Source: Styela clava
Taxonomy: Eukaryota
NCBI RefSeq assembly: GCF_964204865.1
Contig: NC_135262.1
Span: forward strand, 11,966,001 to 12,030,000
Length of the DNA: 64,000 nt
Direction of reading: 5' to 3'
Positions 35,334-61,078 of the stretch are shown here, in pieces (positions within the stretch are counted from its first letter, which is position 1; every line of letters begins with the position of its first letter). A program made the position numbers and the translations under genes. The notes under the pieces were generated by a model. It was not told the DNA's origin. It saw only the letters and a program-made list of their open reading frames with translations, and did not search any database.

Positions 35334-37208
35334 ATGAAGGTGATATGTGCAGGAATGTCTAAATGCGAAACAAAGTCTATGCATTCTGCATTGGAAGAAC
35401 TGGGGTATACAGTATGCGACTATATCGACGTGTTTGTTCACTTGGAGAAGAATTACATGAAATTCACTATCGAAGGTTGGAATTCTGAATTTCTATCAAT
35501 TTATAAAGATTACGATGCGTGTGTTGCCAGTCCGGCATATTATTTTTGGGAGGAATTGGTGGAGGTGTTCCCAGAAGCAAAGGTTAGAAATCATACATTC
35601 ATTCTAAAATTGTAAACATGGAAACGTTAATTAAGTGGCTTATCACTCTCATCATCAGCATATAAAATTCAGCATATAATTCTACATCAATATTAAAACT
35701 TTGGTTTTACTTCTACTATATAGCTAAAACAACTTTATTTCATTCAGTTTTTTGTTTTCCTAGGTTATATTGATGGTGAGAGACAATGATGAAATTTGGT
35801 ACAAAAGTATGAAGAAACAAATGATTGCGAGCGGTAGATTGCGTCGTTTCTACTATTCCCTTTTGTCGTCAACCTGGAGAAAATTTGCTGCATATTTGAA
35901 TAATCCATGTGAGATTTAAAGTTAGGATATTAAGTACTATACCGAGATAAACATATTGAAATTTGAACAAAAGTCGTTATTCCACACGTTGGAGAACGAG
36001 TGATATTGATAGTTCTATAATCTGATTGTATATGAATTTATACATTTGCAGGTTATCTTGCGTTTGGGCATAAAACAACCGGTATGTTCAATTTCACCTT
36101 GATCGATACACCAGTACTGCCTTTCAAGTTAGTTTATAGAAAACATATTGCTCATGTCATTCATGTAAGTAAAATAGTTTCTTTATCAAGTACATTACAG
36201 AAAATTATATACCTTCGGAATATACAATTGTTTCAAACGGACTCGACGTGTTTGGTATCGTGCCATACATATACAGTCAACCAAGTATACAAATACATCC
36301 ATTTGGGTGATGTACAAATACTGCCAATTCACAAGCATATTTCCCGTGTTAAGAACGATCAGCTGTTGTAAGGCATTATGACTTCATAGATTGCAATTTA
36401 GTGACATTCCTAACGGCTTACAATTACATTGAAACAATATAAATATAACAATATAGACTCTCGGATTTGAATGTTAATTTACGGAACCCCTGTACAGTCT
36501 TGGTGCAACAGGTTGAAAACCACTCGTCTAAACAAAAATCTCGTGTTGGAACAATCTGTATCACATAATCATAGTTTTGAGTCACTTTGCCAGGATTAGA
36601 ATATATATAATGCTCAAAATACATTTGTCAATATTAAAATGTTTTGGAGTTATATATTAACACAGCTTTTATGTATCGTTATGGCAACATCATTTTGAGG
36701 ATTACCGCTGAATGATGCTTAAAATCATAATAATGTTTTACATCTACTACACTTATCGTAAGCAACTTTGATCAATAGCAGTGTTGGAATTTCTGTAAGC
36801 ATTCATAACGCACTAATTATATCAGGTGTTGTGGGGCAATATGACTTCCCAGATTGCGACTTCCTATATATTCGTCCATTCGCCACGAGCAGCGCACGAG
36901 TAACGACCATAAGCAGTATCAGTTATATTTTCATCTGAATATTACTATTTATGCTTTTATTCTAGCATTGTCCAAAAAATCGACTTCTAATAATCCAATG
37001 CAAAAGTGATTGGAAACCGTTATGTGAATTTCTTGGTAAACCCATACCAACAAAACCATATCCATGGATAAACAAGGATGGTGAACTAGCGAATATGCTG
37101 TGGGAAATGCCTATTTTCAAGCAAGCTCAAAGAGAAATGTTAACAAATGTCACTATATTATTAGCTGGCATTCTGTGCTTGGGAATATATGTAGCAAAGA
37201 TGAAATGA
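35334..37208 (+). CDS. ST4: Sulfotransfer_4-like, 249 aa, P-loop G12E, possibly inactive
   Basis: Exons 35334-35582, 35764-35908, 36052-36164, 36966-37208, all GT-AG. Has SKCETKS and a one-codon deletion relative to ST5. Confidence 0.82.
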
Positions 37209-38318
37209 ATGATATGTTTCATTTTTGATATTGTTTTTATTTGTTGGCGTGTTTAGTTTATCTAGTTTGAATTATTCGCCAGAAAATTGTCTGTATTGAA
37301 AGAAGTCATATTTGTAGTGGATTAAAATTCCCTTTCAATACAGTATCTCGGAAATGCAGAAAACATAATTCAGAATAACTTTAAATGATTAGATTAGTTC
37401 ATTTCGAATTAATTCACATTAGAAATTTCTACAGTGGTACATTATCTTTCCGCATTTTTATATTGTAGTACATTGATTGTTTTATAATATACAATACCAA
37501 AACATTGTAAAATAGACAAACATTTTTATCTGAATTTAGTTCTCATATTGTCTAATTTGTCGGATGTAATCGTTTACCTACATTTTGTACTGTTTATTTG
37601 CATTTGCGTATGATCAATAAACGTAATTAAGAAGTTAAGAACCTTTGTTCCCAGAATGGATATCAGATCTAGTATTAGAAATCTGATAATCATTATGTAC
37701 TTCAACAACACTTTCGATGCGATATTTCGAAATAACGAAAATTCTTAAAGTTTGTGAGTGGATATGATATTATTCACGATAGTTTCTGTTCTTTTCAGAC
37801 AAAACTGTCACACCCTTGCAGTAATATTATATTGATATAATATAAGGGTTAATTGTATAAAACATAATATTAATAAACATAATAATATAAAACATTTTTG
37901 TTTGCCTGCAACTTTGTGAAAGTGAACTTGTTTTTCTTTGTGATATCAATAATCAAAGTCCTCATAAGTTCAGCCAGAAATATATACTGGTGTTGCGGGG
38001 ATCTATAAAAAACTAAAGCTCAATTGGACCTTCAAGAAGAATCTTAGAGACTTAAAATTATGAATCTATGCTGTTAATTGGCTCCATAAATGTTTTTTAG
38101 AAGTATTGATTTTTGTTTAAGTTATAATATTATTCGAATGTAAGCGCGCAAAATATTTTCGATACTAATTTTTTATTTAGGCGATTTGTAGACTTGCCCA
38201 TATCATCGTTCTGTCACTGTAAAAATTTACCATTACCTATGGTCTATATCTACATACTAGAGCAAAGTTTAAAAATGCATGTTTCATATAATATTTTATA
38301 ATTTTTTCCACAAATTAA

Positions 38319-39893
38319 TTAATATGGTATAAATGGAGGATATTGGCACTGAGTACCACATCCATTTGAACAACAAATTAATCCTTCCGTGCAGTCTACA
38401 TTTGATTTACATTCATTTGAGCAGATTCCAACTCTGTCGTCAACTGGAGGACATCGTGGGTCTGTAACTAAATTGAAGTGAATTAATAAACAATAATATT
38501 AATAGAAGATGTTGTCATCAGTTTTTTTGTTTGATTTTTTTTCAAAACATATTTATAAACTTGGAGCTAGAGTTGTGAAAAACTTCGTAGTTTGCCACTG
38601 CTCACGTAATGCCCTTCTTGCATGCCTTTATGGAGAAATTCTAAACAATAGTTTATCGAATCTGTTTGAATTGTTTCGCCGCATTTTTTTAAATCGACAT
38701 TCTTTAAAATATCAATAAAATCTTCAAACGGGTGCTTTGTGAAATATATTTAAAAATAATTTTTTCCGAAATAATATATATAAATGATTGAGAGATACAT
38801 TACAATTTCATGTTAGGCTACATACCGTTTTTAATCAGTATTCTATACCTCGTAGTATGAGCAAATGAGAGGAAAAGTACTTAAAAACTAAATTTATGTA
38901 GAAAGAAATCTTACATGGTGGTGAGATGCATCTTTGATGGCAACCATTATAGCAACATATATCTCCATTCTTGCATTGGTCATTACTGTAGCATGATGGT
39001 GGAAGACACAATATTCTTTTACGGAGTTCTAACATTCTTGGATTTATTGGCGGGCATCGTTCATCTGAAATTTGAAAGTAAATCCATGTTTTAGAACAAG
39101 AGTATGGGACTTTTTCATTCTATATTTTTAGAAAATATTATTTCTTGTATGAGCTCAATTATAATACTGCAAGAATTTGTCAGTTTTTTTGGGAACGACA
39201 AACAAATCTAAAGACCAATGATCACACACTCTCAAACTTGATAATTTTCCATTGTCTTGGATTTCCTCGTACTTAAAATATATTTGTTTCCTATTTTAAA
39301 TTTATATCTCGATACAGATTTGGTCAACTGCCCCATTCTTTCATTTAATTGAATTAGATAAATGGATTCAAATTATTATAAATTTGAAAGGAACAATCCC
39401 ATACCAAGTGGTGCTTTTACACATTGACTTCCACAGCCGTTCGAACAACATATTCTTCCGTAATTACAATCATTGTTTGAGTAACAATTATGAATACAAA
39501 CTCCTATTTGACCGGTTGCATAAGTGGCAGGACATTTTGGATCCCATCTCGGAAATAATCTGATCCCTAAAAGATGATAAATTAACTGTTAGTAATAATA
39601 TTATATTGTAACGCTTTATAATTTAATCAGATTTTATTGTCATTTTACTTTTTTATACATATAAAGTATTTCATCAAATACAGTTTATTGCTTTAAAAGA
39701 AATTCGTATTTTTACTAGGTTAGAAGATTTCAGTTAGTTATTATCCAGCAATCATAGGATATCACATGTTTCAATAATCGGAAATGCCTTGAAATAAAAA
39801 TTGAATTAAATTAACCAATTTCTAATAGTACAAACCTGCATTGACATAGGTGAAGTATAGAGCAAAAAAGATCACACTGGCAACTTTCATCAT
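38319..39893 (-). CDS. WAP1: secreted protein with three WAP (four-disulfide core) domains, 170 aa
   Basis: Exons 39893-39836 (signal peptide MMKVASVIFFALYFTYVNA), 39566-39405, 39064-38915, 38461-38319. All introns phase 1. Each domain exon has 8 Cys in the pattern C..C-x3/4-C-x5-C-x5-CC-x3-C-x3-C. Confidence 0.9.
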
Positions 39894-40708
39894 ACTGTCG
39901 TTGTTTTTCTTTTAAAATTTTCGAAAATCTTTGTTCAATATTGTTTCTTGAAGGTGCAATTTTCAATCTGATTTGAGAACATAAGGAAACGGAGTCATAT
40001 ATATAGGCTATATTGCGAACGACCTTGAGTATTTAATGAATAAATCATCTTGGAAACTCCATATCTTAACATCCTGTCAAAATTCAAGAGTTAATATTTT
40101 ATTAAAGAAATGATTTCATTGAAGGAGAAAATTTGAAAAGTGAATAATAGAATTGAACACGGGAGAAGTCTTATAGTGTTTTAATCGTATATACAAAATT
40201 TAAGATATCCAAATGATGCAACAATCATGACATTGCTTTTTGACATAAAATCCCCATAAATATTTCGTGTACAAAATAAGAAGCTCGTCGTGACAAACTC
40301 ATACTACCTGATTTCGATGGTGCAATTGACATCCCATTGCCCGCGGGTACATACGTACAACCATTGCAACTCACTGAGTCGAAAGCTTTTTAGCTTTGAA
40401 TAACAGGTATATTTATATACAATTAAAATTTATACCGAATACCAAAAATCAATGGACGTGACGAAATAGAGATTGTGGATTGTCTCATTGAAAAAGATGA
40501 CTTTTGACCAGATAAACCTCCTTCAAATAAATGAAGATAATATTAAGCTTACAATTTTGATTATCAAAGATATAGGTAGTTTCCATCGTGCGCTAACGGA
40601 GCATTTGTTTTTATTACGTGGAACATATGACGTGAGCATGGTGATGATGTAACGCGGGTATGATATGTTTACGTAATAGATCATGTGAAAAATATTGTAC
40701 TGCACTAT

Positions 40709-43648
40709 TAGGCCGCGAGCCGAGGCCCTGAAAAACGCCTAGAAAGTGAGTTTCGTAGCGCACATCAGGTAACTACCTAAAAATGATTTTAAAATGTTCC
40801 TTAAAAATTTAGTAACAAATATTGCCTTGTTCCCACTTCCAAAAGTTGCACGTTTTACGGAAAAGACGCTTTTACTACAAGAAATATGTGCTACGATCTG
40901 TCCTATATTCTCTACATTTTCGGCAATGAACAATGACTTCTGCATGACGTAACAATTGAATCGGATCAGCTGTTAGCGAGCGGATGAATATTAGTTATTA
41001 CTGCTCGACCTTGCGTTGAGTTGGGCAGCCTTTCCATAGCCCTGTTTAGTTAATATTAGTTAAGTTATGCTAAGACGTTGTTGAAAAATGTATAAGTAAG
41101 TTTTTAAACACTTGTAGATCCTTACCGCGGATATGGGCCGTGAGACGAAGCCTTGAACACGCCCAGAAAATGAGTTTCGTAGCGCACATCTGGTAACTGA
41201 ATAAATTTTTCAGTTTTGTGTGAAAATGAACATACTGAACGCATTACAGCTTGTTCCACAATCCTGATGCGAAATTGAATATAAAGAGGTTCCCGGAAAT
41301 TCAATAACCATAAGTTTACAACACATACATAAGAACTATGCAATTCGAGAGCCCTACAGCACACTAACACAAATGTATTCCTGTAATGTTTTGCCTGACC
41401 AAAATCGGACTTCCTCAGTCAATCATAATTTATTAGGTAGATTAAGAAAAATATGGCATACATGTAACCAACAACAAAAAATACTTTAATTGTGTGACAA
41501 GAGTCGCGAGTGACCTCGAAAGCAGCGACACCAACAATGCTGATTCACATTAGCGAATTAATTTTATGTAATAACCACAAGCAGTTTACAACAAGAACAG
41601 CATAAAAAGCTACATCCATTTTATAGAAGCTATCAAACGTATTTATTTTTGGGCCATGAAGTCACAAATTAACATCGTGAGCACGAAAACACAAATAAAT
41701 CAGTTATTTCTCACTTGGAAATTTACCGGAAAAGTCAAGAAAATTAAATGAATGTACAATATGTACATAACATAGTGAACAGAAATATTACAATTAGTCT
41801 TTTTTTAGTTTATGTGGTTATGTATTTGAACAAAGGCAATATCATTTCTAGAAACAGGACTACGACACTAACAAATGTCCGAAAAAAATAAAATAAATGA
41901 TACTTATTAAATCAACTACAATATCTAATTCACTTTCTTCTGAATTGTTTTCGAAATCCACTATCTCGAAATGTGATTTTTGCAGTCAATACAAAAACAA
42001 AAATCTGTGCAATTTAAGTTGATTTTGGCACACTTGCATATATTATTTTGACTATTTTTCTTACACTTGCAGTTTGCCAACTCAAGAACTGATTTGAGGG
42101 CCACATGCTTCGTCAGTGAATCATTGTTGGGTGATAGAGTATAATCCTTACGTTTGTCAGTGTTAAATAGACGTGCCCTGGTATCATTTACATTCTTCAT
42201 ATTCTCTTCATACAGTGAACAAACAAATTCCTCAGCTTTATTTAATAATGCCTCGTTAAGTAACCATAGATCTTCATAGTTGAGAAAAAATGAATTGAAA
42301 ACCTCAATGAAGTCTCCAACATGAGTTTGATGGGCAGTTCCAATTGCAAAAAAGTGCTAAAGTATTTCAATATGAATAGCCCATCTGAGCTGTTTGCAAC
42401 TATTATGATTCTCATATACCTTTACTCTTCAAGACTTCTTGTTTAATCCATTTTATAGCACTGATAGCAGCAGGGATTAGAGCCTGCGTTAGGTCGGATT
42501 GATGAATAATTGCCGTTTTCTTTCGTAGTACAGTAGTCTATCTAAAATGAGAAAGAAAATCATATTTGGAACAGTATGAGTGAAAATGCCACTAAATACT
42601 AACTAATACCTTGAATACATAATGCATTTTATCTGATGAACTCAATGAGCGTATATATGCTCATTGCATGTAGCCTACTACAGTCCAGCAGTGTTTGCAT
42701 ACCAGTACTAGACAATATCTACACTAAATTTTGATATAGCCTATCACAGTCTGAAATGCCCTATGACAGTATGAGTATGGACTATAGACTATATTAAAAC
42801 ATCAACTGTCTGTCTACAACTTGATTTCTCACCTCTCAATCGTTTCCAATGCTACTTTTCTTTCCACTCGGGCATAACTTATCATTGCTTCCCAGGTTCT
42901 TGTCGACTCTATGAATTTAGATTTAGACCAACCGACATTAGTAAAATTGATTAATTCCTTCTCTTTCACACAACCGTGCATCACAGAAACAGCCATTAAT
43001 TTCTATTTTCAAATATGCTGTGGCCTATATAGTAGTATAAGTCTGCTGAATAGTCAAGAAGAGTCATTAAATTAATCATAAACATTTCATGCAAGCCAGA
43101 AAATATCGTTGTTTGTGACATATTATTCTAGGTCTACCCTTCCTTGGAGTTACCGCACCGTACCTGTTTAACAACGTCTTATGAGCTAGTGCTCAACTAA
43201 AATTGCTATTTATGGTAAGGATATACAAGTGTTTAATATCTTACTTATATTTTTCAACACCTCCTTAGAATAACTGAACTAATAATAACTGAAAAAAACT
43301 ATGGAAAGGCTACTCAACGCAAAAGCGAGCAGCAGTAGTAGTACATCTGATATTCATCCGACCACTGGGGATTCACCTACAGCTGACTAATTTGATTGTT
43401 ACGTCATGCATGAGTCTGCGTTCATTGGCCCGTGATACCGGAAAAGCAGAGAAAATAGGACAGATGGTAACACATAATTACTGTAGTAAAAGCGTCTTGT
43501 AAAACGTTGTAAAACGTGCAACTTTTGGAAGTGGGAACAAGGCAATATTTGTTACTAAATTTCTAAGGAACATTTTAAAATCATTTTCAGGTAGTTACCT
43601 TATGTGCGCTACGAAACTGAAAGATAAATGGCCTCGGCTCGCGGCCTA
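40709..43648 (-). mobile_element. Academ-like DNA transposon, internally deleted
   Basis: Terminal TAGGCCGCGAGCCGAGGCC inverted repeat extended by ~400 bp of imperfect TIR. TSD TAT (40706-40708, 43649-43651), empty site at 54622-54624. Internal remnant 41961-42200 (R..LF...L.P..DSL..H, then LELANCKCKK...CKCAK..LNCTDFCFC..C.N) resembles the Cys-rich C-terminus of Academ transposases. Confidence 0.8.
41355..41420 (-). ncRNA. Degenerate homolog of the hammerhead motif at 1811-1870
   Basis: Minus strand CTGAGGAAGTCCGATTTTGGTCAGGCAAAACATTACAGGAATACATTTGTGTTAGTGTGC aligns with 1823-1882. GAAA is mutated to AAAA. Confidence 0.6.
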
Positions 43649-45170
43649 TATTAATGAACAAGGGTAGAATAACAATAACTCCATGTTACTAAAAACGCTT
43701 TGAGTGGCAAAAATGATTGGCGACTTCTTCTAGGACTGAAGGGTCATTCTATTTTAGTAAGCGACAAACTGGGTGTTAAAAAGATATTACACTGCTATAT
43801 GGTGGGTAAAATTTCATCCGACCATATTTCATAAAAAGTGGAAAATTGAGAAATTCCTTGTTTTCAGTTTACAGTGTACAATTGATTGTATTAGCTAATG
43901 CTTCAATCAAGTAATCTAGAAAAAATATATGTACTACATATTATTAAATATGTAATATAATACCATTACAAAACTAAACGATATTAAAAAACTATATCAA
44001 ATACAAAGTAATTTTTTTGCATTTACACCTCGAAAAAACAACACCCTCAGCTGCGAAGGAATTCATATCCGCATGGGAAGCGATGCAAAAGACCTTATAA
44101 CAAGACTATTTAGGACCTTAGGTGGACAGGTCACGGTATAAAACGTTTTCGAGCTTGAAATAATTTTTGTATCCTATTCAAATGGAGAAAAGAAATACTA
44201 CGGACCCTCGGCTGGGTGACACGTACCCGATAGGCCACAGGTTTGGACAAGAAATGTGATATTTTGATGGGACATGCAAATTTTCTGGTACTGTCTTCAT
44301 AGCAAGTAAATCAAAAAGATAGATTTAAACAAAACTTTGTTCATCAAAACTTATATTTATTATGATAGAAAATCATATAAATGTACTAACTGTAAGTGAG
44401 GACTCCAACGCACAATTAGGCATGAATCAAAATCACAGATTCATCTAATACCAATCCTTTAATAGAAATGAAGAACATTTGGATGAGTTTTTGAAATAAT
44501 TCGGGCTGGTTTGAGTCAGCACTCACTTCCAACAGAGAAAAGGAAAACTTTGGACGTTTACATGCGCTGATAGACAAAAAGCCTCACTTGACTACATAAT
44601 AGGTGATTATGAATAGTGCTAAAAATTGCGAATCTTATCACTTCAGAGAAAGAATCTCGTCGAATCATCGCATAATCATATTTAAAATCAAATTCAGACT
44701 ACGAGCAAACAAGTTGAGCACATCGGCAACTACAACTTTTCTTTTGAAAATTTTTGAATTATGACAGGATGTTAAGTTATGGAGTTTCCCAGATAATTTA
44801 TACTTTAAAAACTCAAGGTCGTTCGCAATATAGCCTATATATATGACTCTTTTCCCTATGTCCTCAATTGAGTTAGAAAGTTGTATCTTCAAAAAGCAAT
44901 ATTGAACAAAGATATTTGAATCTTTGAGAAAGAAAAACAACGACAATATAATGAAAATTGACAGTGTAATCTTTTTTGCTGTATACTTCGCCAATGTCGA
45001 TGCAGGTTTGTGCAATTAGAAGTTGTTTTATTCGAATTTAATTAGTAATTCTATTCAATATTATTTCGTGCTTATTCATCATCTTTTAGGGATCCGATTA
45101 CTTCCGAGATGGGATCCAAAATGTCCTGTCACTTATGCAACCGATAAAATAGGAATTTGTATTCATCGTT

Positions 45171-45387
45171 GGGTGCTCCCGAAGTATGCTCACCAAGATG
45201 GCGGACATCGGAACGTAACATGGGTAATTTTTTTCCAAATTTCCTTATTTTAGTCCTATTATCAGTTCGAAGACTAGCCAAGAGCCTCCCGTAGTATTCA
45301 TACCTAAAATTATGGCCTAACCCTAACCTAGTACACATGTTACATTCCGATGTCCGCCATCTTGGTTCGCATACTTCGGAAGCCCCC
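45171..45387. mobile_element. 217-bp MITE with ~50-bp TIRs and a 7(-8)-bp TSD; superfamily unassigned
   Basis: TIR GGG[T/G]GCT[C/T]CCGAAGTATGC..ACCAAGATGGCGGACATCGGAA. TSD CATCGTT at 45164-45170 and 45388-45394. The site is uninterrupted in WAP4 (~58803). Contains an internal CCTAACCCTAACCT. Confidence 0.92.
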
Positions 45388-46210
45388 CATCGTTGTTACT
45401 CAAACAATGATTGTAATTACGGAAGAATATGTTGTTCGACCGGATGTGGAAGTCAATGTGCAAGAGCACCACTTGGTATGTGGTTATTCTGTTTACATTT
45501 TTAGTTCCACTGCGTTCAATTATACTAATCTTATTATTATTCAATTAAATCAGAAAATGGGGCTGTTGACTAAATCTGTATCGAAACAGAAAATTAAAAT
45601 ATAAACCAAATAATTCAAGTACGAGACTTTAAATGATCATATTGGCTTTTACTTTCGACGTGACAGCGCATTCCAGCAATAAAAAAATCCTGTCATTGTA
45701 CAAGGAAATCCAACATAACGTAAAGGCATCAAGTTTTTGAAAGGATCATTGGTGTTAGAACTTATTTGTAGCTCTTAACAAAACTGACACATCTTTGCAG
45801 TATTATATTCAAGCTCCTATAAAAAAAACAATCATCTCTCAAAAGCTGGTATAAAAAAAGTCCATAGTTTTGTTCTGATTCGAAAACATAGACTTACTTT
45901 TATATTTCAGATGAACGATGCCCGCCAATAGATCCAAGGATGTTGGAACTCCGTCCAAGAAGATTGTGTCTTCCTCCATCATGCTACAGCAATGATCAAT
46001 GCAAGAATGGAGATAAATGTTGCTATGATAGTTGCCGTCAACGATGCATCTCACCACCATGTACGGTTTCTTTCTACATTTTTTTCTTTCTACAAGTTTT
46101 GAATAATTTTTACATTTCAAGTTTTTCACCTATTTCCTCATACTACGATGAATAAGAACCCTGGTGACAAGCATTATGTACATGAACTTGTAATGTAGCT
46201 CCCAATTATT

Positions 46211-46214
<4 letters not shown>

Positions 46215-49199: not shown

Positions 49200-51124
49200 A
49201 TGAAGGTGATATGTGCAGGAATGTCTAAATGCGGAACAAAGTCTATGCATTCTGCATTGGAAGAACTGGGGTATACAGTATGCGACTATATCGACGTGTT
49301 TGTTCACTTGGAGAAGAATTACATGAAATTCACTATCGAAGGTTGGAATTCTGATGAATTTCTATCAATTTATAAAGATTACGATGCGTGTGTTGCCAGT
49401 CCGGCATATTATTTTTGGGAGGAATTGATGGAGGTGTTCCCCGAAGCAAAGGTTAGAAATCATACATTCATTCTAAAATTGTAAACATGGAAACGTTAAT
49501 TAAGTGGCTTATCACTCCCATCATCACCATATAAAATTCAGCATATAATTCTACATCAATATTAAAACTTTGGTTTTACTTCTACTATATAGCTAAAACA
49601 ACTTTATTTCATTCGGTTTTTTGTTTTCCTAGGTTATATTGATGGTGAGAGACAATGATGAAATTTGGTACAAAAGTATGAAGAGGCAAATGATTGCGAG
49701 CGGTAGATTGCGTCGTTTCTACTATCCCCTTTTGTCGTCGACCTGGAGAAAATTTGCTGCATATTTGAATAACCCATGTGAGATTTAAAGCTAGGATATT
49801 AAGTACTATACCGAGATAAATATATTGAAATTTGAACAAAAGCCGTTATTCCACACGTTGGAAAACGAGTGATATTGATAGTTCTAAAATTTGAGGAATT
49901 GTATATGAATTTATACATTTGCAGGTTATCTTGCGTTTGGGCATAAAACAACCGGTATGTTCAATTTCACCTTGATCGATACACCAGTACTGCCTTTCAA
50001 GTTAGTTTATAGAAAACATATTGCTCATGTCATTCATGTAAGTAAAATAGTTTCTTTATCAAGTACATTACAGGAAATTATATTCCTTCGTAATATACAA
50101 TTGTTTCAAACTGACTCGACGTGTTTGGTATCGTGCCAAACATATACAGCCAACCAAGTATACAAATACAGCCATTTGGGTGATGTACAAATACTGCCAA
50201 TTCACAAGCATATTTCCCGTGTTAAGAACGATCAGCTGTTGTAAGGCATTATGACTTTATAGATTGCAATTTATTGACATTCCTAAAGGCTTACAACTAT
50301 ATTTAAACAATATAAATATAACAATATAGACTCTCGGATTTGAATGTTAATTTACGGAACCCCTGTACAGTCTTGGTGCAACCCAGGTTGAAAACCACTC
50401 GTCTAAACAAAAATCTCGTGTTGGAACAATCTGTATCACATAATCATAGTTTTGTGTCACTTTGCCAGGATAATATATATAATGCTCAAAATACATTTGT
50501 CAATATTAAAATGTTTTGGAGTTATATATTCAATCAAGTAAAATACTTACAAACACAGCTTTTATGTATCATTATGGCAACATCATTTTGGTGATTACCG
50601 CTGAATGATGCTCAATATCATAATAATTTATTACATGTACTTTTACACTTATCGTGAGCAACTTGGATCAATAGCAGTTTTGGAGTTTCTGTAAGCATTT
50701 TTAACGCACTAATTATATCAAATGTTGTGGGGCAATATGACTTCCTATATATCCGCCCATTCGTCACGAGCAGCGGATTGTTAATGCAACGTTACCAACT
50801 GACTAGTAATTAATTGTAGCGACCATTAGCAGTATCAGTTATATTTTCATATGAATATTACTATTTTTTCTTTTATTCTAGAATTGTCCAAAAAATCGAC
50901 TTCTAATAATCCAATGCAAAAGTGATTGGAAACCGTTATGTGAATTTCTTGGTAAACCCATACCAACAAAACCATATCCGTGGATAAACAAGGATGGTGA
51001 ACTAGCGAATATGCTATGGGAAATGCCTATTTTCAAGCAAGCTCAAAGAGAAATGTTAACAAATGTCACTATATTATTAGCTGGCATTCTGTGCCTGGGA
51101 ATATATGTAGCAAAGATGAAATGA
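49200..51124 (+). CDS. ST5: Sulfotransfer_4-like sulfotransferase, 250 aa, intact
   Basis: Exons 49200-49451, 49633-49777, 49925-50037, 50882-51124, all GT-AG. Tail VTILLAGILCLGIYVAKMK. Confidence 0.88.
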
Positions 51125-52218
51125 ATGATATGTTTTATTTTTGATATTGTTTTTATTTGTTGGCGTGTTTAGTTTATCTAGTTTGAATTATTCGCCAGAA
51201 AATTGTCTGTATTGAAAGAAGTCATATTTGTAGTGGATTAAAATTCCCTTTCAATACAGTATCTCGGAAATGCAGAAAACATAATTCAGAATAACTTTAA
51301 TGATTAGATTAGTTCATTTCGAATTAATTCACAGTGGTACATTACCTTTCCACATTTTTATATTGTAGTACTTTGATTGTTTTATAATATACAATACCAA
51401 AACATTGTAAAATAAACAAACATTTTTATCTAAATTTAGTTCTCATATTGTCTAATTTGTCGGATGTAATCGTTTGCCTACATTTTGTACTGTTTATTTG
51501 CATTTGCGTATGATCAATAAACGTGATTAAGAAGTTAAGAACCTTTGTTCCCAGAATGGATGTCAGATCTAGTATTAGAAATCTGATAATCATTATGTAC
51601 TTCAACAACACTTTCGATGCGATATTTCGAAATAACGAAAATTCTTGAAATTTGTGAGTGGATATGATATTATTCACGATAGTTTCTGTTCTTTTCAGAC
51701 AAAACTGTCACACCCTTGCAGTAATATTATATTGATATAATATAAGGGTTAATTGTATAAAACATACGTTAATAATAATAAACATAATAATATAAAACAT
51801 TTTTGTTTGCCTGCAACTTTGTGAAAGTGAAATTGTTTTTCTTTGTGATATCAATAATCTAAAGTCCTCATAGGTTCAGCCAGAAATATATACTGGTGTT
51901 GCGGGGATCAATAAAAAACTAAAGCTCAATTGGACCTTCAAGAGGAATCCTAGAAACTTAAAATTATGAATCTATGCTGTTAATTGGCTCCATAAATGTT
52001 TTGTAGAAGTATTGATTTTTGTTTAAGTTATAATATTATTCGAATGTAAGCGCGCAAAATATTTTCGATACTAATATTTTATTTAGGCGATTTGTAGACT
52101 TGCCCATATCATCGTTCTGTCACTGTAAAAATTTACCAATACCTATGGTCTATATCTACATACAAAGTTTAAAAATGCATGTTTCATATAATATTTTATA
52201 ATTTTTTCCACAAATTAA

Positions 52219-53790
52219 TTAATATGGTATAAATGGAGGATATTGGCACTGAGTACCACATCCATTTGAACAACAAATTAATCCTTCCGTGCAGTCTACA
52301 TTTGATTTACATTCATTTGAGCAGATTCCAACTCTGTCGTCAACTGGAGGACATCGTGGGTCTGTAACTAAATTGAAGTGAATTAATAAACAATAATATT
52401 AATTGAAGATGTTGTCATCAGTTTTTTTGTTTGATTTTTTTTAAGACATATTTATAAACTTGGAGCTAGAGTTGTGAAAAACTTCGTAGTTTGCCACTGC
52501 TCACGTAATTCCCTTCTTGCATGCCTTTATGAAGTAATTCTAAACAATAGTTTATCGAATCTGTTCGAATTGTTTCGCCGCATTTTTTAACATCGACATT
52601 CTTTAAAATATCAATAAAATCTTCAAACGGGTGCTTTGTGGAATATATTAAAAAATAATTTTTTCCGAAATAATATATATAAATGATTGAGAGATACATT
52701 ACAATTTCATGTAGGCTACATACCGTTTTTCATCAATATTCTATACCTCGTAGTATGAGCAAATGAGAGGAAAATTATTTAAAAACTAAATTTATGTAGA
52801 AAGAAATCTTACATGGTGGTGAGATGCATCTTTGATGGCAACCATTATAGCAACATATATCTCCATTCTTGCATTGGTCATTACTGTAGCATGATGGTGG
52901 AAGACACAATATTCTTTTACGGAGTTCTAACATTCTTGGATCTATTGGCGGGCATCGTTCATCTGAAATTTGAAAGTAAATCCATGTTTTAGAACAAGAG
53001 TATGGGACTTTTTCATTCTATATTTTTAGAAAATATTATTTCTTGTATGAGCTCAATTATAATACTGCAAAAATTTGTCAGTTTTTTGGGAACGACAAAT
53101 AAATCTAGAGACCAATGATCACTCACTCTCAAACTTGATAATTTTCCATTGTCTTGGATATCCTCGTACTTAAAATATATTTGTTTCATATTTTAATTTT
53201 ATATCTCGATACAGATTTGGTCAACTGCCCCATTTTTTCATTTAATTGATTTAGATAAATGGATTCAAATTATTATAAATTTGAAAGGAACAATCCCATA
53301 CCAAGTGGTGCTTTTACACATTGACTTCCACAGCCGTTCGAACAACATATTCTTCCATAATTGCAATCATTGTTTGAGTAACAATTATGAATACAAACTC
53401 CTATTTGATCGGTTGCATAAGTGGCAGGACATTTTGAATCCCATCTCGGAAATAATCTGATCCCTAAAAGATGATAAATTAACTGTTAGTAATAATATTA
53501 TATTGTTACGCTTCATGATTTAATCAGATTTTATTGTCATTTTACTTTTTTATACATATAAAGTATTTCATCAAAAACAGTTTATTGCTTTAAAAGAAAT
53601 CCGTATTTTTACTAGATTAGAAGATTTCAGTTAGTTATTATCCAGCAATCATAGCAAATCACATGTTTCAATAATCGGAAATGCCTTGAATTAAAAATTG
53701 AATTAAATTAACCAATTTCTAATAGTACAAACCTGCATTGACATTGGTGAAGTATAGAGCAAAAAAGATCACACTGGCTACTTTCATCAT
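52219..53790 (-). CDS. WAP3: secreted three-WAP-domain protein, 170 aa
   Basis: Exons 53790-53733, 53463-53302, 52962-52813, 52361-52219; near-identical to WAP1. Confidence 0.9.
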
Positions 53791-55200
53791 ACTGTCGTTG
53801 TTTTTCTTTTAAAATTTTCGAAAATCTTTGTTCAATATTGTTTCTTGAAGGTGCAATTTTCAATCTGATTTGAGAACATAAGGAAACGGAGTCATATATA
53901 TAGGCTATATTGCGAACGACCTTGAGTATTTAATGAATAAATCATCTTGGAAACTCCATACCTTAACATCCTGTCGAAATTCAAAATTTAATATTTTATT
54001 AAAGAAATGATTTCATTGAAGGAGAAAATTCGAAAAGTGAATAATAGAATTGAACACGGGAGAAGTCTTATAGTGTTTTAATCGTATATACGTATACAAC
54101 GTATAAACAAAAATTAAGATATCCAAATGATGCAACAATCATGACATTGCTTTTTGACATAAAATCCCCATAAACATTTCGTGTACAAAATAAGAAGCTC
54201 GTCGTGACAAACTCATACTACCTGATTTCGATGGTGCAATTGACATCCTATTGCCTGCGGGTACATACGTACAACCATTGCAACTCACTGAGTCGAAAGC
54301 TTTTTTAGCTTTGAATATCAGGTATATTTATATACAATTAAAATTTATACCGAATACCAAAAATCAATGGACGTGACGAAATAGAGATTGTGGCTTGTCT
54401 CATTGAAAAAGATGACTTTTGACCAGATAAACCTTCTTCAAATAAATGAAGATAATATTTATGCTTACAATTTTGATTATTAAAGATATAGGTAGATTCC
54501 ATCGTGCGCTAACGGAGCATTTGTTTTTATTACGTGGAACATATGACGTAAGCATGGTGATGATGTAACGCGGGTATGATATATTTAAGTAATAGATCAT
54601 ATGAAAAATATTGTGCTGCACTATTAATAAACAAGGGTGAGAATAACAACAACTCCATGTTACTAAAAAAGCTTTGAGTGGCAAAAATGATTGGCGACTT
54701 CTTCTAGGACTGAAGGGTCATTCTATTTTAGTAAGCGACAAACTGGGTGTTAAAAAGATATTACACTGCTATATGGAGGGTAAAATTTCATCCGACCATA
54801 TTTCATAAAAAGTGGAAAATTGAGAAATTCATTGTTTTCAGTTTACAGTGTACAATTGATTGTATTAGCTAATGCTACAATCAAGTAATCTAGAAAAAAT
54901 ATATGTATTACATAATATTAAATATGTATTATAACAACGTTACAAAACTAAACGATATTAGAAATCTATACCAAATACAAAGTAATTTTTCTGCGTTTAC
55001 ACCTCGAAAAAGAACACCCTCATCTGCAAAGGAATTCATATCCGCATGGGAAGCGATGCAAAAGACCTTATAACAAGACTATTCAGGTGGACAGGTCACA
55101 GTATATAACGTTTACGAGCTTAAATTAATTTTTGTATCTTATTCAAATTAGGAGAAAGAAATACTACGAACCCTCGGCTGGGTGACATGACCCCCTAGGC

Positions 55201-56671
55201 CATAGGTTCTCAAAGTGCTCCGTACGGAGCCCCAGGGCTCCGCAAGAGAAACCCAGGGGCTCAGCGAGCTATTCGATTACTTTTCAAAATACTGACTTGG
55301 CTAATTTAAAAATGTTTCTAGAAGCAAAAACTGCTTTGATAAAATTTTACAACAATATAGCCTCCAAACATGGCAAAGGGGCGGACTTAAAAAATGACAT
55401 TATTTATAAGCAGGAGCGCAGCCAGGATTCTTAAGAGGAAGGAGGTTCAAATTTGGAATCGGAAATTTACGCGCAACATTTTTGGCGATTCAGGAAAAAG
55501 ATAACGAGATTTCTGTTGCGTAAAATATATAATTCATGACCAATGCGAACATTTAAAGTGTCTTGTCTTAATAATTTGATTGTGCTCATCGTTACTAACG
55601 CTCGATTCGAGATTACTATTAGGATTACTAAAATAAAAGAATACTATTCTAAAATAGCATAAACTGCGTGATAAACTGCCAACTATAAATGAATTGGAGT
55701 CGTATTTTTGCGATCTTGGGATTTGTTAAACCTGATTGGTTCTTTCGCACTCGAGATTATTTTTAAGCAAGATATCGCCGTTTGAAAAATCACAAGGTCT
55801 TGGCAAAATACGAACGATTGAAATTTATCTTAGTGCATGCGGCTCCGTCGGTAGTTTCAGAGTGAAAAAATGGTATATCGCGCGCATAATTAATTGACTG
55901 TGTTTCAATTTCGCAGTTACCACGATGAATAACCGTGGAAAACTCAACATAACATCAAATTTTGTGATTTACATTGTCTATAGAAGCGTTTTTATTCTGA
56001 CGTGAGTGTGCTGAAACAAAACGTATAGTGTTATCCTTCATTTTAAGTTTTAGTTCTAATATTTTAGAATGCCACTTTTTTAATTTATTTGAATTGTGGA
56101 TTTACCTCTTTATTAGCTATTATTTCTAGCATTTCGTCGCCGATGATTATAGTTTGGTAACATGTTTTTCACATTAAACTCATAATTCCCCACGAGAACG
56201 AAAAAGCAATTATCGTCGTCATTGTGGAACAATACATGTATATGCCGAAGGAAATTTTCGATTTAGGGAGAATAAACACCGGCGTGAAGATGTTTGAGGT
56301 TTAAAAACACGCCATGCTGACGAAAACAATCGGCGATTGTAACAAAATGCAATCGCGCACGATATTAGCGGCCTTTTAAGTCTTCCAAAAATGTCAAGAG
56401 GGGAAAAGATTCGACCCCTAATTTATTAATATGTTTGTCATGTGTCAAATTTACAGCTTTATAATATACAATTTATCTTTGAAATTTAGATTTATTTATA
56501 ACTTGTATTAACCCTATTAAAAGGGTTTGCCATTTAAATTGAGTAAAGTACGTTTAACTTACTCAGGAATATTAATCGGAAAGTAACAGTTTTAACATTT
56601 ATTTTGGGGCTCCGTGAATAATAGTCAACCTTTTCAAGGGCTCCGCAACGCCAAAAGTTTGAGAACCCCTG
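55201..56671. mobile_element. hAT-type non-autonomous element
   Basis: TIR CA[T/G][A/G]GGTTCTCAAA and 8-bp TSD CCCTAGGC at 55193-55200 and 56672-56679. The site is empty at ~44228 and ~18125. Confidence 0.9.
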
Positions 56672-56879
56672 CCCTAGGCCACAGGTTGGGACAAGAAATG
56701 TGATATTTTGATGGGACATGCAAATTTTCAGGTACTGTTTTCATAGCAAGTGAACTAAAAAGATAGATTTAAACAAAGCTTTGTTCATTAAAACTTATAT
56801 TTTTTATGGTAGTAAATTATATAAATATACTAACTGTAAGGGAAGTCTTCAACGCACAATTAGGCATGAATCAAAATCA

Positions 56880-57720
56880 CAGATTCACTTAATATCAATC
56901 CTTTAATAGAAATGAAGAACACTTGGATGAGTTTTTGAAAGAATTCGGGCTGGTTTGCGTCAGCATTCACTTCCAACAGGGAAACGGAAAACTTAGGACG
57001 TTTACATGCGCTGATAGACAAAAGCCCCACTTGACTACATAATAAGTAATTATGAATAGTGCTAAAAATTGCGAATCTTACTTCAGATGAAGAATCTCAT
57101 CGGATCATCGCATAGTCACGTTAAAAATCAAATTCAGACTACGAGCAAACAAGTTGAACCCATCGGCAACTGCAACGCGTATAAAAACTTTGTCAAGGCT
57201 CATATGGAACCTACAGAATTATCGATTACAAAAAATGTAAAAGTAAAAGGAAAATTGCCCAGGAAAAACGTAATAATTCGGGATAAAAAAAAAAAGGAAT
57301 TTGCAAAAATAATAAAACACCACCTCCAGCAGAATCAACATCAAAAAGCATGAAGATGCTCAGAAAGATCTTGAAGCTACAAACCTCGAAAAGCAGCGGA
57401 ACTATCTTCACTCTGAAATTTCCACAGAAAGCAATCAATCATCACTTGAATGGAAAACTGTCAATTAAATTATTGGTATGCAAAGAGTTACCAAAGCTAA
57501 AATCAAAGCTTAGAGTCAAGAAGATCGTTTGAATAAGTGGAAATGTAATTTTCAAGAATCAACTTGGTAAAGATATTCCCATACAAATCAATCGCGAGCA
57601 TGAATAAGTAATAAAGACCGGGCCATTTAATGAAAACGAATTGGAAATTGTTCTGAAGAAACTAAGAAACAAGAGACATTAAGCATATTTAATCAATTTC
57701 AAATTTTATGCAATAAGATG
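56880..57720 (+). mobile_element. Decayed LINE remnant (APE endonuclease C-terminus, RTE-like); shorter copy at ~44430-44736
   Basis: Broken frames give ...LDEFLKEFGL...HFQ...GKL.TF...LDYI...SAKNCESY...SSDHRIVTLKIKFRLRANK. Confidence 0.6.
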
Positions 57721-58220
57721 GGATGAGAGTTGACCATATAGCGGTGCAATATCTTTTAACACCCAGTTTTGACACGTACTGGAATGTGGGAAATAAAATG
57801 AACATTCAGTTCTAGGAGAAGTCGCGAATCATTTTTTCATATGAACTCGTGCGTAAACATAACATACCCGCGTTACATCATCAACCTATTTACGTCATAC
57901 GTTCCACGTCATAAAAAATGCAATACTAGCGCATAAGCATAAATATGAGCTTCATTGATTTGAAAGGAGGTTTACGTGGTAAAAATCAATCATTTGAATT
58001 TTTCTTATTAATCTTTAATCGTGCTGCTGAAAGAAATTCGGTATGAATATAGTTTGTATATAAAATTACCGGATATTCAAAGCTAAAAAACTTTTTAACT
58101 CAGTTAGTTGCAATAGTTTTACGTATGTACCCGCAGGCAATAGGATGTCAATTGCACCATCGAAATCAGTAGTATAAGTTTGTCACGACGAGCTTCTTAT
58201 TTTGTGCACGGAATATTGAT

Positions 58221-58482
58221 GGGGATTTTATGCCAAAAAGCCATGTCATAATTGTGACACCAAACTTTAAACTTTGTTTTTGCGTATGCGATGTGAACAT
58301 ATTAAAATATCATGAGACTTCACACATGTTCAAGTTCTATTAATCATCCTTTAAATTTTCTCTCCAAATGAAATATTTGCTTTTAAAAAATATTGGATTA
58401 TGACAGGATGTTAAGTTATGGAGTTTCCAAGATGATTTATTCTTTAATAACTCAAGGTCGTTCGCAATATAGCCTATATATA
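58221..58482 (+). promoter_or_regulatory. WAP4 proximal promoter: kappaB-like motifs and TATA-like box
   Basis: GGGGATTTT at 58221-58229, TGGAGTTTCC at 58419-58428 and TATATATA at 58475-58482, ~105 bp before the ATG. The motifs are conserved in paralogs; factor identity is inference. Confidence 0.5.
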
Positions 58483-58585
58483 TGACTCCTTTCCCTATGT
58501 CCTGAATTGAGTTAGAAAGTTGTATCATCAAGAAGCAATATTGAACAAAGATATTTGAATCGTTGAAAAAGAAAACAACGACAAT

Positions 58586-59997
58586 ATGATGAAAACTGCC
58601 ATTGTGATCTTTTTTGCTGTATACTTCGTCAACGTCAATGCAGGTTTGTGCAATTAGAGGTTGTTTTATTTAAAGTTGATTAGTAATTTTATTCAATAGT
58701 ATTTTGTTGTTAATTCATCATCTTTTAGGGATCCGATTACTTCCGAGATGGGATCCAAAATGTCCTATCACTTATGCAACCGATCAAATAGGAATTTGTA
58801 TTCATCGTTGTTACTCAAACAATGATTGTAATTACGGAAGAATATGTTGTTCGACCGGATGTGGAAGTCAATGTGCAAGAGCACCACTTGGTATGTGTTT
58901 ATTCCGTTTAAATTTTTAGTTCCACTGCGTTCAATTATACTAATCTTACTATTATTCAATTAAACCAGAAAATGGGGCTGTTGACTAAATCTGTATCGAA
59001 ATAGAAAATTAAAATATAAACCAAATAATTCAAGTACGAGACTTTAAATGATCATATTGGCTTTTACTTTCGAAGTGACAGCGCATTACAGCAATAAAAA
59101 AATCTTGTCATTGTACAAGGAGATCCAAGATAACGTTAAGGCATCAAGTTTTTGAAAGGATCATTTGTGTTAGAACTTATTTGTAGCTCTTAACAAAACT
59201 GACACATCTTTGCAGTATTATATTCAAGCTCCTATAAAAAAAACAATCATCTCTCAAAAGCTGGTGTAAAAAAAGTCCATAGTTTTGTTCTGATTCGAAA
59301 ACATAGACTTACTTTTATATTTCAGATGAACGATGTCCACCAATAGATCCAAGGATGTTGGAACTCCGTCAAAGAATATTGTGTCTTCCTCCATCATGCT
59401 ACAGCAATGATCAATGCAAGAATGGAGATATATGTTGCTATGATGGTTGCCGTCAACGATGCATCTCACCACCATGTACAGTTTCTTTCTACATTTTTTA
59501 AGTTTTGAATAATTTTTACATTTTAAGTTTTTCACCTATTTCCTCATACTACGATGAATAGGAACCCTGGTGACGAGCAGTATGTACATGAACTCGTAAT
59601 GTAGCTCCCAATTATTTACATATATATATATATATATTGTTTCGGAAAAGTTCGTTTTTTATAAATCTTTCACGAAGCAGCCGTTACTATGGGATACTAT
59701 GGCAAACTATACGAGCAATGGTAAACTACAAAGTTTTTCACTATCCTAGATCCAAGTGTATGAATATATCGTCATAAAAATAAAACAAAAGAGAGTCATG
59801 ACGAGATCTTTATTTTATATTATTGTTTATTAATTCATTTTAATTTAGTTACAGACCCACGATGTCCTCCAGTTAAAGAGAGAGTTGGAATCTGCTCAAA
59901 TGAATGTAAATCAAACATAGACTGCACAGAAGGATTAATTTGTTGTTCAAATGGATGCGGTACTCAGTGTCAATATCCTCCGTTTATACCATTTTGA
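58586..59997 (+). CDS. WAP4: secreted three-WAP-domain protein, 170 aa, intact
   Basis: Exons 58586-58643 (MMKTAIVIFFAVYFVNVNA), 58729-58890, 59326-59475, 59855-59997. GT-AG, phase 1. Confidence 0.9.
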
Positions 59998-60239
59998 TAG
60001 ATTTGTGTGAAAAATTATAAAATATTATACGCAAAATGCATTGTTAAACTTTCTCTAGTACGAATATCATTTTCCACAAATAGTTCTAAGATATCAGTGA
60101 ATTTGCTGACTTATAACGTCTGGGATACCAAAACATCACTATGTGGTCCCATAGCGTCATCTCGCAGTTGAAACGATGCAATCAATGATTTGTAAAAATT
60201 ATGGTGATCAACTAACTCAAAAATGCTTTATCATCTGAC

Positions 60240-61078
60240 ATGAAAGATTATAAAGAAGCAATTTTTTTGCAATTTGACCTAAGAAATGAATAATAGTAGT
60301 GGTGTAAGCCCATGAAACTATTCATCTGATTCTTTTCACTCTTGTATCAAATTTCAACCTTTTCTTTCACCATCCATGTAACCTAATGTGTCAAAAACTA
60401 AGTAACATTAAAGTAACCATATGAATATTTTGTAAAATGAATTTCAGATTAAATGGGTTTTATGTTAAACTTCACAATTTCAGTAAAAACGGAATCAATA
60501 ATGACAATTTCGTATATATGGAAGTCGGACAGGTGCCTCGGCCAATACGCAAATTAAAATGTTAAATATATTAGTATAGTTGAATTGCAAATAATTAAAT
60601 AAACGTATATAGAATTTACTCTGCCAGCCAATTAACAAAAATCTGTAAACACATTGCTTATGTAACGCAAATTTTAGTTAGTCAATTTATTTCAATATTC
60701 TGATGATAGTGTTAGAAGATCAACGTCCAAGATTATGCATGTGTGAGGGCTAGTTCTTGATTTTGGTGTATAATTCCAGACCTCTCGATACTAACAATTT
60801 CTCATTGTTACGTTATGAAGAATAGTAATTGTATCAAACATTTATTTCCGGAAACACTTCCATCCAGTCCTCCCGAAAGTAATACACTGAACTGGCAACA
60901 ACTGCATCGAAATCTTTATACATTGATCTAAATTACCCCGAACTTCCGTCATCAATGGCGCAATTAGTATGCAAGGGGCGAAACCCGTCAGAAAAATTGC
61001 ATACTGTATAACTAAGTTCTTCTAGTGCAGAATTCATAGACTTCCAGATTTGGACATTCCTGCACATTTCACTTTCAT
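60240..61078 (-). pseudogene. ST6: sulfotransferase pseudogene (exons 1-2 only)
   Basis: 61078-60840 reads MKVKCAGMSKSG/SMNSALEELSYTVC...*...YKDFDAVVASSVYYFREDWMEVFPE. 60382-60240 reads VTWMVKEKVEI*YKS...GLHHYYYSFL. Stops and frameshifts present; not in the ORF track. Confidence 0.85.

Follow-up and report, generated by a model that had tools for sequence, protein, structure and literature searches.

Neighbouring sulfotransferase and triple-WAP genes in Styela clava: one tandem segmental duplication, probably passive

In the stretch of the Styela clava genome explored here (the window, 64,000 nt of contig NC_135262.1), tail-anchored Sulfotransfer_4 (PF17784) genes form a tandem array, alongside which lie four triple-WAP (PF00095) genes, of which three are intact. 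Our findings support a model where the two families were simply carried along as neighbours: passive co-duplication under birth-and-death evolution, with the products acting apart, is in our judgement the probable explanation, and the observations do not need a co-regulated defence locus. No more than one co-duplication of a sulfotransferase (ST) and a WAP gene can be demonstrated. The first-pass annotation had described the families as repeatedly copied together and had moved from there to a linked defence module. That step is unsupported, since its two convergent pairs, ST4/WAP1 and ST5/WAP3, form one duplicated block and go back to one event, while its other two examples fail homology tests. 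Overall, we picture an unstable neighbourhood, rich in transposons, that houses two multigene families unrelated to each other, and we infer the following order of events: a triple-WAP gene would have come to lie beside one member of an older Sulfotransfer_4 tandem array and would then have duplicated head-to-head alone; a tandem duplication spanning about 12 kb would recently have copied the ST, the WAP on the minus strand, WAP(-), its inverted partner, WAP(+), and the spacers, with one copy now decaying.

The two gene families

Five ST genes were modelled in the window. ST1 (6613-8485, +) is an intact paralogue of 248 aa; ST2 (11799-14381, -), also intact, yields a model identical to P0004 (RefSeq LOC120333049); ST3 (20064-22257, +) is an inverted paralogue of ST2 (dS 0.18) whose modelled exon-2 acceptor reads AA instead of AG; ST4 (35334-37208, +; four exons, 249 aa) yields a model identical to P0001 (RefSeq LOC144431376); and ST5 (49200-51124, +; four exons, 250 aa) is an intact Sulfotransfer_4 gene encoding a C-terminal hydrophobic helix. 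A pseudogene scrap, consisting of an ST1-like exon 1 fragment with upstream DNA, lies at 15132-15539 (-). The main paralogue groups are separated by dS of about 1-1.3. The initial assignment of the two families was borne out by Pfam, with PF17784 matched by 5/5 ST pieces, four above the curated cut-off, and PF00095 by 6/6 WAP exons. Full-length scores for PF17784 reach 169.6 bits in P0001 (ST4) and 176.2 bits in P0004 (ST2), against a gathering threshold of 22.8 bits, and all four full-length S. clava proteins match the whole domain (E 1e-49, for P0001, to 3e-53). The domain (IPR040632) is shared with the schistosome oxamniquine-activating sulfotransferase SmSULT (4MUA) and with Cpz8 (9KF1) and SgdX2 (8Y9P) of Streptomyces, which are the PDB sequence matches (3e-11, 2e-19, and 2e-17, respectively) and also head the fold search. 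In the latter, run with a predicted model of medium confidence (pLDDT 64), every one of the 19 best Foldseek matches (E<=0.001) is a sulfotransferase of this type (TM 0.5-0.6). Like their PF17784 relatives, the S. clava proteins carry an N-terminal G-x-x-K-x-G-T PAPS loop; the 5'-PSB signature (G-x-x-K/R-x-G-T/S) is intact in ST1, ST2, ST3, and ST5 and broken in ST4. Unlike the three solved enzymes, the ascidian STs continue past the Pfam domain into a terminal hydrophobic helix, also found in 100 of 118 full-length relatives, and in ST4 the loop glycine is replaced by glutamate. The STs are predicted to be PAPS-dependent small-molecule sulfotransferases held at the membrane via the C-terminal helix. 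They would face the cytosol at the ER and act on lipophilic acceptors, such as alkyl alcohols, sterols, phenolics, or xenobiotics. Proteins fusing the two families were also sought elsewhere and rejected: no WAP is joined to an ST in 150 ST relatives by Cys pattern, nor in eight long ones by Pfam.

The triple-WAP genes comprise WAP1 (38319-39893, -; four exons, 172 aa, 24 Cys), which has a signal peptide exon followed by one WAP domain per exon; WAP2 (44948-46615, +), a probable pseudogene; WAP3 (52219-53790, -), intact and identical to WAP1 at 168 of 172 aa; and WAP4 (58586-59997, +), an open triple-WAP gene that is the inverted (head-to-head) paralogue of WAP3. The WAP4 model is identical to P0009 (RefSeq LOC120333282), in which Pfam finds three WAP stretches. 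All nine domains of the three intact genes hold eight Cys and the core C-x5-C-x5-CC-x3-C-x3-C, and the N-terminus has a hydrophobic stretch (Kyte-Doolittle), a putative signal peptide. Elafin, SLPI, WFDC2/HE4, WFDC5, crustins, and waprins are likewise built of 8-Cys domains behind a signal peptide. In elafin and the C-terminal domain of SLPI, the C1-C2 and C2-C3 spacings are 6 and 8 (PMC11408880, in part), a pattern that the S. clava domains do not follow: in domains 1, 2, and 3 these spacings are 11/3, 15/4, and 9/3, with three domains per protein. Net charge is +12 in SLPI and +3 in elafin (PMC11408880, in part) but near zero in the mature S. clava proteins (+1.7, -0.3, and +1.6), domain 1 by itself having +2 to +3. 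The WAPs are most plausibly secreted, disulfide-rich three-domain proteins with non-elafin spacing, whose extracellular role may be protease modulation, surface binding, or host defence; they may still inhibit proteases, as WFDC2 does without elafin spacing. No solved structure is related to the triple-WAP protein at E<0.001, and the Atlas clusters closest to it consist of chordate WAP proteins (score 0.91). A word-seeded search, insensitive for such sequences, gave no close relative outside S. clava; among five candidates, it yielded only the protein itself and one unnamed double-WAP protein. The triple-WAP family is previously undescribed, and the tail-anchored Sulfotransfer_4 branch is uncharacterised so far.

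A single tandem segmental duplication

The convergent pairs stand tail-to-tail about 1.1 kb apart, as first annotated, with ST4(+) and WAP1(-) separated stop-to-stop by 1,110 nt and ST5(+) and WAP3(-) by 1,094 nt. Both lie inside one colinear block, so that a single event accounts for both. Copy 1 (24990-47115, +) contains ST4, WAP1, and the WAP2 pseudogene and corresponds, in colinear blastn blocks, to copy 2 (48477-60162, +), which contains ST5, WAP3, and WAP4 as three open frames. A unit of about 12 kb, comprising the ST, both WAPs, and all spacer DNA, was copied whole; in copy 1 it now amounts to about 10 kb of its own DNA and two large insertions. As in tandem segmental duplication generally, the copies are colinear through non-coding DNA and pseudogenisation came later. 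The duplicates are also alike in age (dS 0.045 [0.01-0.09] for ST and 0.026 [0-0.06] for WAP). The ST and WAP(-) portion (35033-40710 vs 48899-54626) retains 95% identity with gaps (blastn) and shows 148 substitutions per 5,635 aligned nt (2.6%), whereas the WAP(+) side diverges more (184/2,777, 6.6%; p 1e-17), and the upstream 431 nt differ by 4.9%. One might then ask whether two haplotypes of a single ST-WAP-WAP locus were set in tandem by the assembly, with no co-duplication at all. The left block does come near the 1.72% heterozygosity of S. clava (PMC7540406, in part), but the right part and the upstream DNA exceed it, five structural differences separate the copies, and the sole N run of the window (4369-4641) lies away from the copy 1/copy 2 junction, making a partial artefact highly improbable.

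The structural differences include transposons. A MULE-type insertion of 9.6 kb (25421-35032), with a 9-bp target-site duplication, an ORF of FLYWCH and MULE type, and a nested LINE, ends 301 nt before the ATG of ST4 and is absent in copy 2; an inverted-repeat element of 2.9 kb, TA-flanked, occupies the WAP1-WAP2 spacer (40711-43646) and is likewise missing from copy 2. Conversely, copy 1 does not have the 1.5-kb element of the WAP3-WAP4 spacer (55201-56671), which is flanked by an 8-bp target-site duplication and which we take, by the rule for such 8-bp sites, to be hAT-like. These insertions matter for one observation that goes against passive co-duplication and would favour a selected module: the ST and WAP(-) block is more alike between copies than the WAP(+) side, as expected if it were homogenised by concerted evolution. 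The edges of the block, however, fall at transposon insertions, where any conversion tract would be expected to stop in either case.

Copy 1 is decaying, with independent lesions in both families. ST4, which has the 9.6-kb transposon on its upstream side, differs from ST5 by a one-codon deletion and by G12E in the PAPS loop, where 136 of 140 stretches matched in relatives have G and one has E; the enzyme is probably impaired. In WAP2, exon 2 carries a 224-nt MITE (about 45167-45390, inverted ends of 56 nt), about 1.2 kb of the promoter is deleted, and the first ATG reads ATA, with the second ATG intact.

The mirror pair and the upstream relic

The first-pass annotation had seen the pairing recur in mirror image beyond WAP4, and once more between ST2 and ST3. 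WAP4(+) indeed faces an ST pseudogene, ST6psi (60254-61078, -), of which exons 1-2 only persist, with frameshifts and stops; that it copies the ST4/WAP1 module, however, is refuted by the tree, the AU test, and the alignments. ST6psi is sister to P0003 (LOC120332892) with support 99/97, a group of ST4, ST5, and ST6psi is rejected (p-AU 0.027), and intron 1 and the 5' flank cannot be aligned to ST4 (86/200 and 19/200 shuffles reach the score). ST6psi is thus ruled out as the mirror co-duplicate of ST4. The WAP inversion is alignable to about 390 nt beyond the WAP stop and no further, the remaining ST4-WAP1 spacer having no mirror counterpart (39/60 and 64/100 shuffles reach the score, against 0/200 in each of seven positive controls); no ST tail accompanies the inverted WAP copy. 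A neutral-clock test also rejects the ST4/ST6psi mirror (d up to 0.27, p 2e-4). This test counts for little in our judgement: conversion seems to have distorted dS in the WAP coding sequences, where WAP2/WAP4 (0.137) is close to WAP1/WAP4 (0.148), and clock arguments are correspondingly weak.

Two passive co-duplications could nonetheless be envisaged, an older inversion having made an ST>-<WAP / WAP>-<ST arrangement in which the mirror ST is ST7 or the ST6/P0003 lineage. In this scheme, the ST arms would have diverged but the central WAPs would have stayed similar through arm-to-arm conversion, and the linkage would again be passive. ST7 is an additional ST gene of which only the 3' end (63830-64000, -) lies within the window; this end is 88% identical to exon 4 of ST4/5. 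ST7 is on the minus strand beyond WAP4, as is ST6psi, and its tail falls in the ST4/5/P0002 group (40/54 aa identical to ST5). Its dS to ST5 (0.21 [0.06-0.41], 55 codons) overlaps in range that of the WAP inversion (0.15-0.18), and the WAP exons do bear signs of conversion. Yet nothing resembling the 3' flank of ST4 turns up in 60163-63829 or beside ST7 (39/60 and 91/200 shuffles reach the score), the 3' flank of ST7 not aligning to that of ST4, unlike in the ST2/ST3 inversion, whose introns and flanks can still be aligned at a comparable dS (0/200 shuffles). ST6psi and ST5, moreover, share 261 of 377 nt in exons 1-2, compared with 476 of 519 nt shared by the WAP1 and WAP4 coding sequences. 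We therefore hold a second, older co-duplication to be unlikely.

Between ST2 and ST3, a WAP upstream region is present, as first annotated (18038-19460, +), but not as part of a co-copied pair: there is no WAP coding DNA and no gene of ST4/5 type. The relic ends at a TATA-like box, without 5' UTR, and search with WAP4 exon 1 and its 5' UTR detected no WAP exon (160/200 shuffles reach the score). The ATG of ST3 follows 604 nt downstream of it, in the same orientation; as a third ST-WAP module the relic was discarded, ST3 itself being distant from ST4/5 (dS about 1.2). Thus, with the mirror pair and the relic failing, no independent or repeated origin of the pairing, such as would mark a functional cluster, is found. 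Within the window each family has also duplicated alone, ST2/ST3 without WAP coding DNA and WAP(-)/WAP(+) without an ST, and no WAP coding neighbour occurs beside ST1-ST3.

Regulation, possible roles, and known systems

In the proposed defence module, STs would sulfate antimicrobial, or detoxify, small molecules and WAPs would be secreted as antimicrobials or antiproteases, under co-regulation and a linkage kept by selection. Defence roles are described for many WFDC proteins (PMC11408880, in part), the WAP promoter copy near ST3 could serve such a link, and dN/dS <1 in both families alike indicates purifying selection, and so that the genes matter to the animal. On the other hand, there is just one demonstrated co-duplication, with separate duplications elsewhere in the window; the WAPs do not have elafin spacing and do not appear strongly cationic, and the convergent layout gives no shared promoter. 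The upstream regions of ST5 and WAP3 do not align (165/200 and 133/200 shuffles reach the score). Their sharing of 8-mers slightly exceeds shuffles (4/300), in one of five ST-WAP comparisons and as the single marginal case among eight comparisons, mostly through AT-rich words, and is not repeated with the WAP4 upstream region (126/300); overall, comparison of the promoters shows next to nothing in common. No NF-kB-like site occurs in six upstream regions. None of the six LOC identifiers occurs in the main texts examined for expression records, and the portions available of the supplements of PMC9953650, PMC10980280, and PMC11988888 hold nothing relevant on their expression. Overall, a selected module seems improbable, and passive co-duplication, with ST and WAP products most likely functioning independently, is the reading we prefer.

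A literature search found no published report of WAP genes within a sulfotransferase array. Local, lineage-specific WAP duplication is known from the human chromosome 20 WFDC cluster and the mammalian trappins (PMC11408880, PMC2831891, both in part); the S. clava WAPs show a similar local birth-and-death but, unlike that cluster, sit inside a sulfotransferase array. Tandem expansions, for example of Hsp70, ficolins, and CYP2U1, are described in the S. clava genome, about 46% of which is transposons (PMC7540406, in part), and the present duplication resembles them; neither 'sulfotransferase' nor 'WAP' occurs in the main text of that paper. As best explained, the case is of little weight, a clean, small instance of neighbours duplicated passively, with birth-and-death, in a tunicate genome rich in transposons, that is, ordinary gene-family turnover. 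It does caution that gene pairs 'recurring' within one segmental duplication are no independent evidence. Were co-regulation and conserved linkage true, this would be a rarity, a chordate defence cluster built of non-homologous genes. The lasting value rests with the parts, the triple-WAP family and the tail-anchored Sulfotransfer_4 branch. Antimicrobial alkyl sulfates are known from stolidobranch ascidians, and this branch is a reasonable candidate for their source. A more specific proposal, which we regard as a long shot, is an emerging co-regulated locus of sulfated small molecules and secreted WAPs, where the STs make antimicrobial alkyl sulfates, conversion homogenised the block, and ST3, having captured a WAP promoter, is switched on with the WAPs; if true, it would make the locus an animal defence cluster of non-homologous genes and point to candidate enzymes by which ascidians synthesise alkyl sulfates.

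Tandem duplication of the ST and WAP genes

Five sulfotransferase (ST) genes, ST1 to ST5, each of four exons with open frames, lie in the window together with a two-exon ST pseudogene (ST6), a scrap resembling ST1 exon 1, the 3' end of ST7 and four triple-WAP genes, WAP1 to WAP4, each of four exons. The spliced models of ST4, ST2 and WAP4 match RefSeq letter for letter (LOC144431376, LOC120333049 and LOC120333282). In Pfam, the HMM check proposed by the first-pass annotation, the STs match Sulfotransfer_4 and WAP4 shows three WAP domains, and the layout described there was accurate, with ST4/WAP1 and ST5/WAP3 convergent at 1,110 and 1,094 nt from stop to stop. Searching for homologues of ST5 exon 1 gave 8 proteins out of 11 candidates, all from Styela clava. 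The modelled exon-2 acceptor of ST3 (21113-21115) is AA, not AG, though the frame is open; thus ST3 is possibly mis-spliced or uses another acceptor. The sole assembly gap in the window is at 4369-4641 (273 N).

Window self-comparison revealed a colinear block, 35033-40710 versus 48899-54626 (148 substitutions in 5,635 aligned nt), which extends left past a 9.6-kb insertion (24990-25420 versus 48477-48907) and right across WAP2/WAP4, reaching 47115 and 60162. The duplicated unit therefore comprised an ST, a minus-strand WAP (WAP1/WAP3) and a plus-strand WAP (WAP2/WAP4), including all spacers. Synonymous divergence (dS) is 0.045 (0.01-0.09) for ST4/ST5 and 0.026 (0-0.06) for WAP1/WAP3. Both convergent pairs are products of one event, and neighbours within such a block co-duplicate regardless of function. 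The copies diverge by 2.6% in the block of ST and minus-strand WAP, by 4.9% in the upstream 431 nt and by 6.6% on the plus-strand WAP side (184/2,777; p 1e-17). The greater likeness of the first block counts against a passive reading and fits a conversion tract spanning exactly ST and WAP; its ends are the two transposon insertion sites, which would set such limits even in the absence of selection. The 2.6% is also close to the 1.72% heterozygosity reported for this species (PMC7540406, excerpt), as would suit a haplotype artefact of assembly, an explanation we regard as very improbable.

Inverted WAPs, the ST6 pseudogene and the relic beside ST3

Beyond layout, families and this one co-duplication, the first-pass annotation had proposed that STs and WAPs were repeatedly copied together, citing a mirror-image pair and a WAP upstream region among ST2/ST3; neither withstood homology tests. 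WAP4 does face the ST6 pseudogene (60254-61078, -), but this is no mirror copy of ST4/WAP1. The inverted WAPs align with WAP1/WAP3 over promoter, introns and ~390 nt of 3' flank only (to 37931 for WAP2, less for WAP4), and what is left of the ST4 3' flank (722 nt) has no counterpart in 60163-63829 (score reached by 39/60 shuffles) or 47116-48476 (64/100). In all seven positive controls, drawn from ST2/ST3 (intron, flanks) and from the WAPs (introns, flank), the real score exceeded that of every one of 200 shuffles. The ST6 pseudogene retains exons 1-2 alone and, with breaks read as X, is identical to P0003 (LOC120332892) at 78/118 positions versus 66/118 for ST5. In a tree of 16 proteins and 123 columns it is sister to P0003 (support 99/97), and grouping with ST4+ST5 is rejected (p-AU 0.027); its intron 1 (86/200 shuffles) and 5' flank (19/200) are unalignable with ST4.

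An older inverted duplication, followed by arm-to-arm conversion of the central WAPs, would accommodate the dS of 0.21 (0.06-0.41, over 55 codons) between the ST7 tail and ST5, and the coding dS of WAP2/WAP4 (0.137), about that of WAP1/WAP4 (0.148) despite much closer non-coding DNA, which points to exon conversion among WAPs. We consider it unlikely; if it occurred, it would be a second passive event. Inverted duplication seems to recur in the region: ST2/ST3 (11131-22928) is a head-to-head inverted duplication (dS 0.18), resembling the WAP inversion (dS 0.15-0.18) in approximate age and geometry. The ST7 frame continues beyond the ST4/ST5 stop position (63830-63850), so its C-terminus differs. 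WAP1, WAP2 and WAP3 carry an AATAAA/ATTAAA signal at +136 to +142; the corresponding stretch is deleted in WAP4, and the signal is absent from the 400 nt 3' of its stop (59998-60400).

The WAP upstream region is present at 18038-19460 (+), as ~1.4 kb of 72-78% match stopping exactly at a TATA-like box. The match is in tandem with ST3, whose ATG follows 604 nt further on; alignment with shuffles found no WAP exon 3' of the match, and ST3 stands at dS ~1.2 from ST4/ST5. This relic is a mark of rearrangement in the region, not a further copy of the ST-WAP pair. Its proximal part shares indels with the WAP4-type promoter, and WAP regulatory DNA possibly influences ST3 (regulatory capture). DNA behind ST1 (9049-11037) has a direct copy near the window start (1026-3430, 90-96%), which is a further tandem unit or else a repeat.

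Decay of the first copy and selection

Judged from sequence, the first copy (24990-47115) is decaying. ST4 differs from ST5 by G12E in the PAPS-binding loop and by one codon fewer. Such loops typically contain glycine and lysine (PMC11625862, excerpt), and glycine occupies this position in 136 of 140 covering stretches (23 of 163 lacked coverage) from the 150 best relatives, two S. clava proteins included, among 1.84 billion representatives searched; G12E would be expected to impair PAPS binding. A MULE-type element (25421-35032; 9-bp target duplication; minisatellite-rich ends 25433-26123 and 34669-35028) ends 301 nt 5' of the ST4 ATG, and contains a FLYWCH+MULE ORF (32465-33601, -) and a nested, nearly full LINE (26165-31071, +) with a zinc-knuckle ORF1 and an endonuclease-RT-RNase H ORF2 split across two frames. 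WAP2 has a 224-nt MITE inside exon 2 and an upstream deletion of 1.2 kb. MULE and LINE names come from Pfam, other transposon class names from general target-site rules. Within a 2.9-kb inverted-repeat element lies an open frame of 131 aa (41961-42356, -), Cys-rich at one end, which has no Pfam match and is likely a transposon remnant. Purifying selection on both families preceded this decay (Fisher tests: ST4/5, p 0.006; ST2/3, p 0.002; WAP1/4, p 0.016; WAP3/4, p 0.001), being not significant for WAP1/3 (p 0.20).

Protein families and the ST-WAP pairing

Among proteins of solved structure, those nearest to the STs by sequence search, and by fold of a medium-confidence predicted model, are Streptomyces Cpz8 and SgdX2 and schistosome SULTs; the Atlas neighbours of the STs are clusters from chordates and cnidarians. 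A hydrophobic stretch of 19 residues (KD 1.4-2.1) closes each of the five STs, and such an end is shared by 100 of the 118 relatives that are 225-320 aa long (the length limits excluded 32 of 150). We infer tail-anchored, cytosol-facing, PAPS-dependent enzymes acting on lipophilic small molecules. P0109, a distant Sulfotransfer_4 relative, is fused with a domain of the UAA-transporter family, to which PAPS transporters belong, and P0013 has a trypsin-like stretch; these extra domains may be gene-model fusions. Antibacterial alkyl sulfates are described from Halocynthia hepatopancreas (PMC6780655, in an excerpt that does not mention Styela) and are one plausible candidate product of the STs.

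In the WAPs the N-terminus is signal-like and the cysteines number 24, spaced 11/3, 15/4 and 9/3 instead of the 6/8 of elafin and SLPI-C (PMC11408880, excerpt), with a mature charge of -0.3 to +1.7; they thus do not look like canonical elastase inhibitors and are probably not antimicrobials of the strongly cationic kind, and other defence roles are possible.

The literature searched, largely outside subscription journals, contained no description of an ST-WAP pairing, six LOC ids did not occur in its main texts, and the searched contents of supplements to PMC9953650, PMC10980280 and PMC11988888 offered nothing relevant. A secreted WAP and a membrane-tethered cytosolic ST have no obvious common step. 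The upstream regions of ST5 and WAP3 give no local alignment; their 64 common 8-mers versus 43 expected (4/300 shuffles), one of eight comparisons made, count against a passive reading, and the excess did not repeat with WAP4 (126/300). A co-regulated ST and WAP defence locus is improbable in our estimation. Quite probably these genes belong, as uncharacterised members, to two known families, and an ordinary segmental duplication copied their adjacency a single time.
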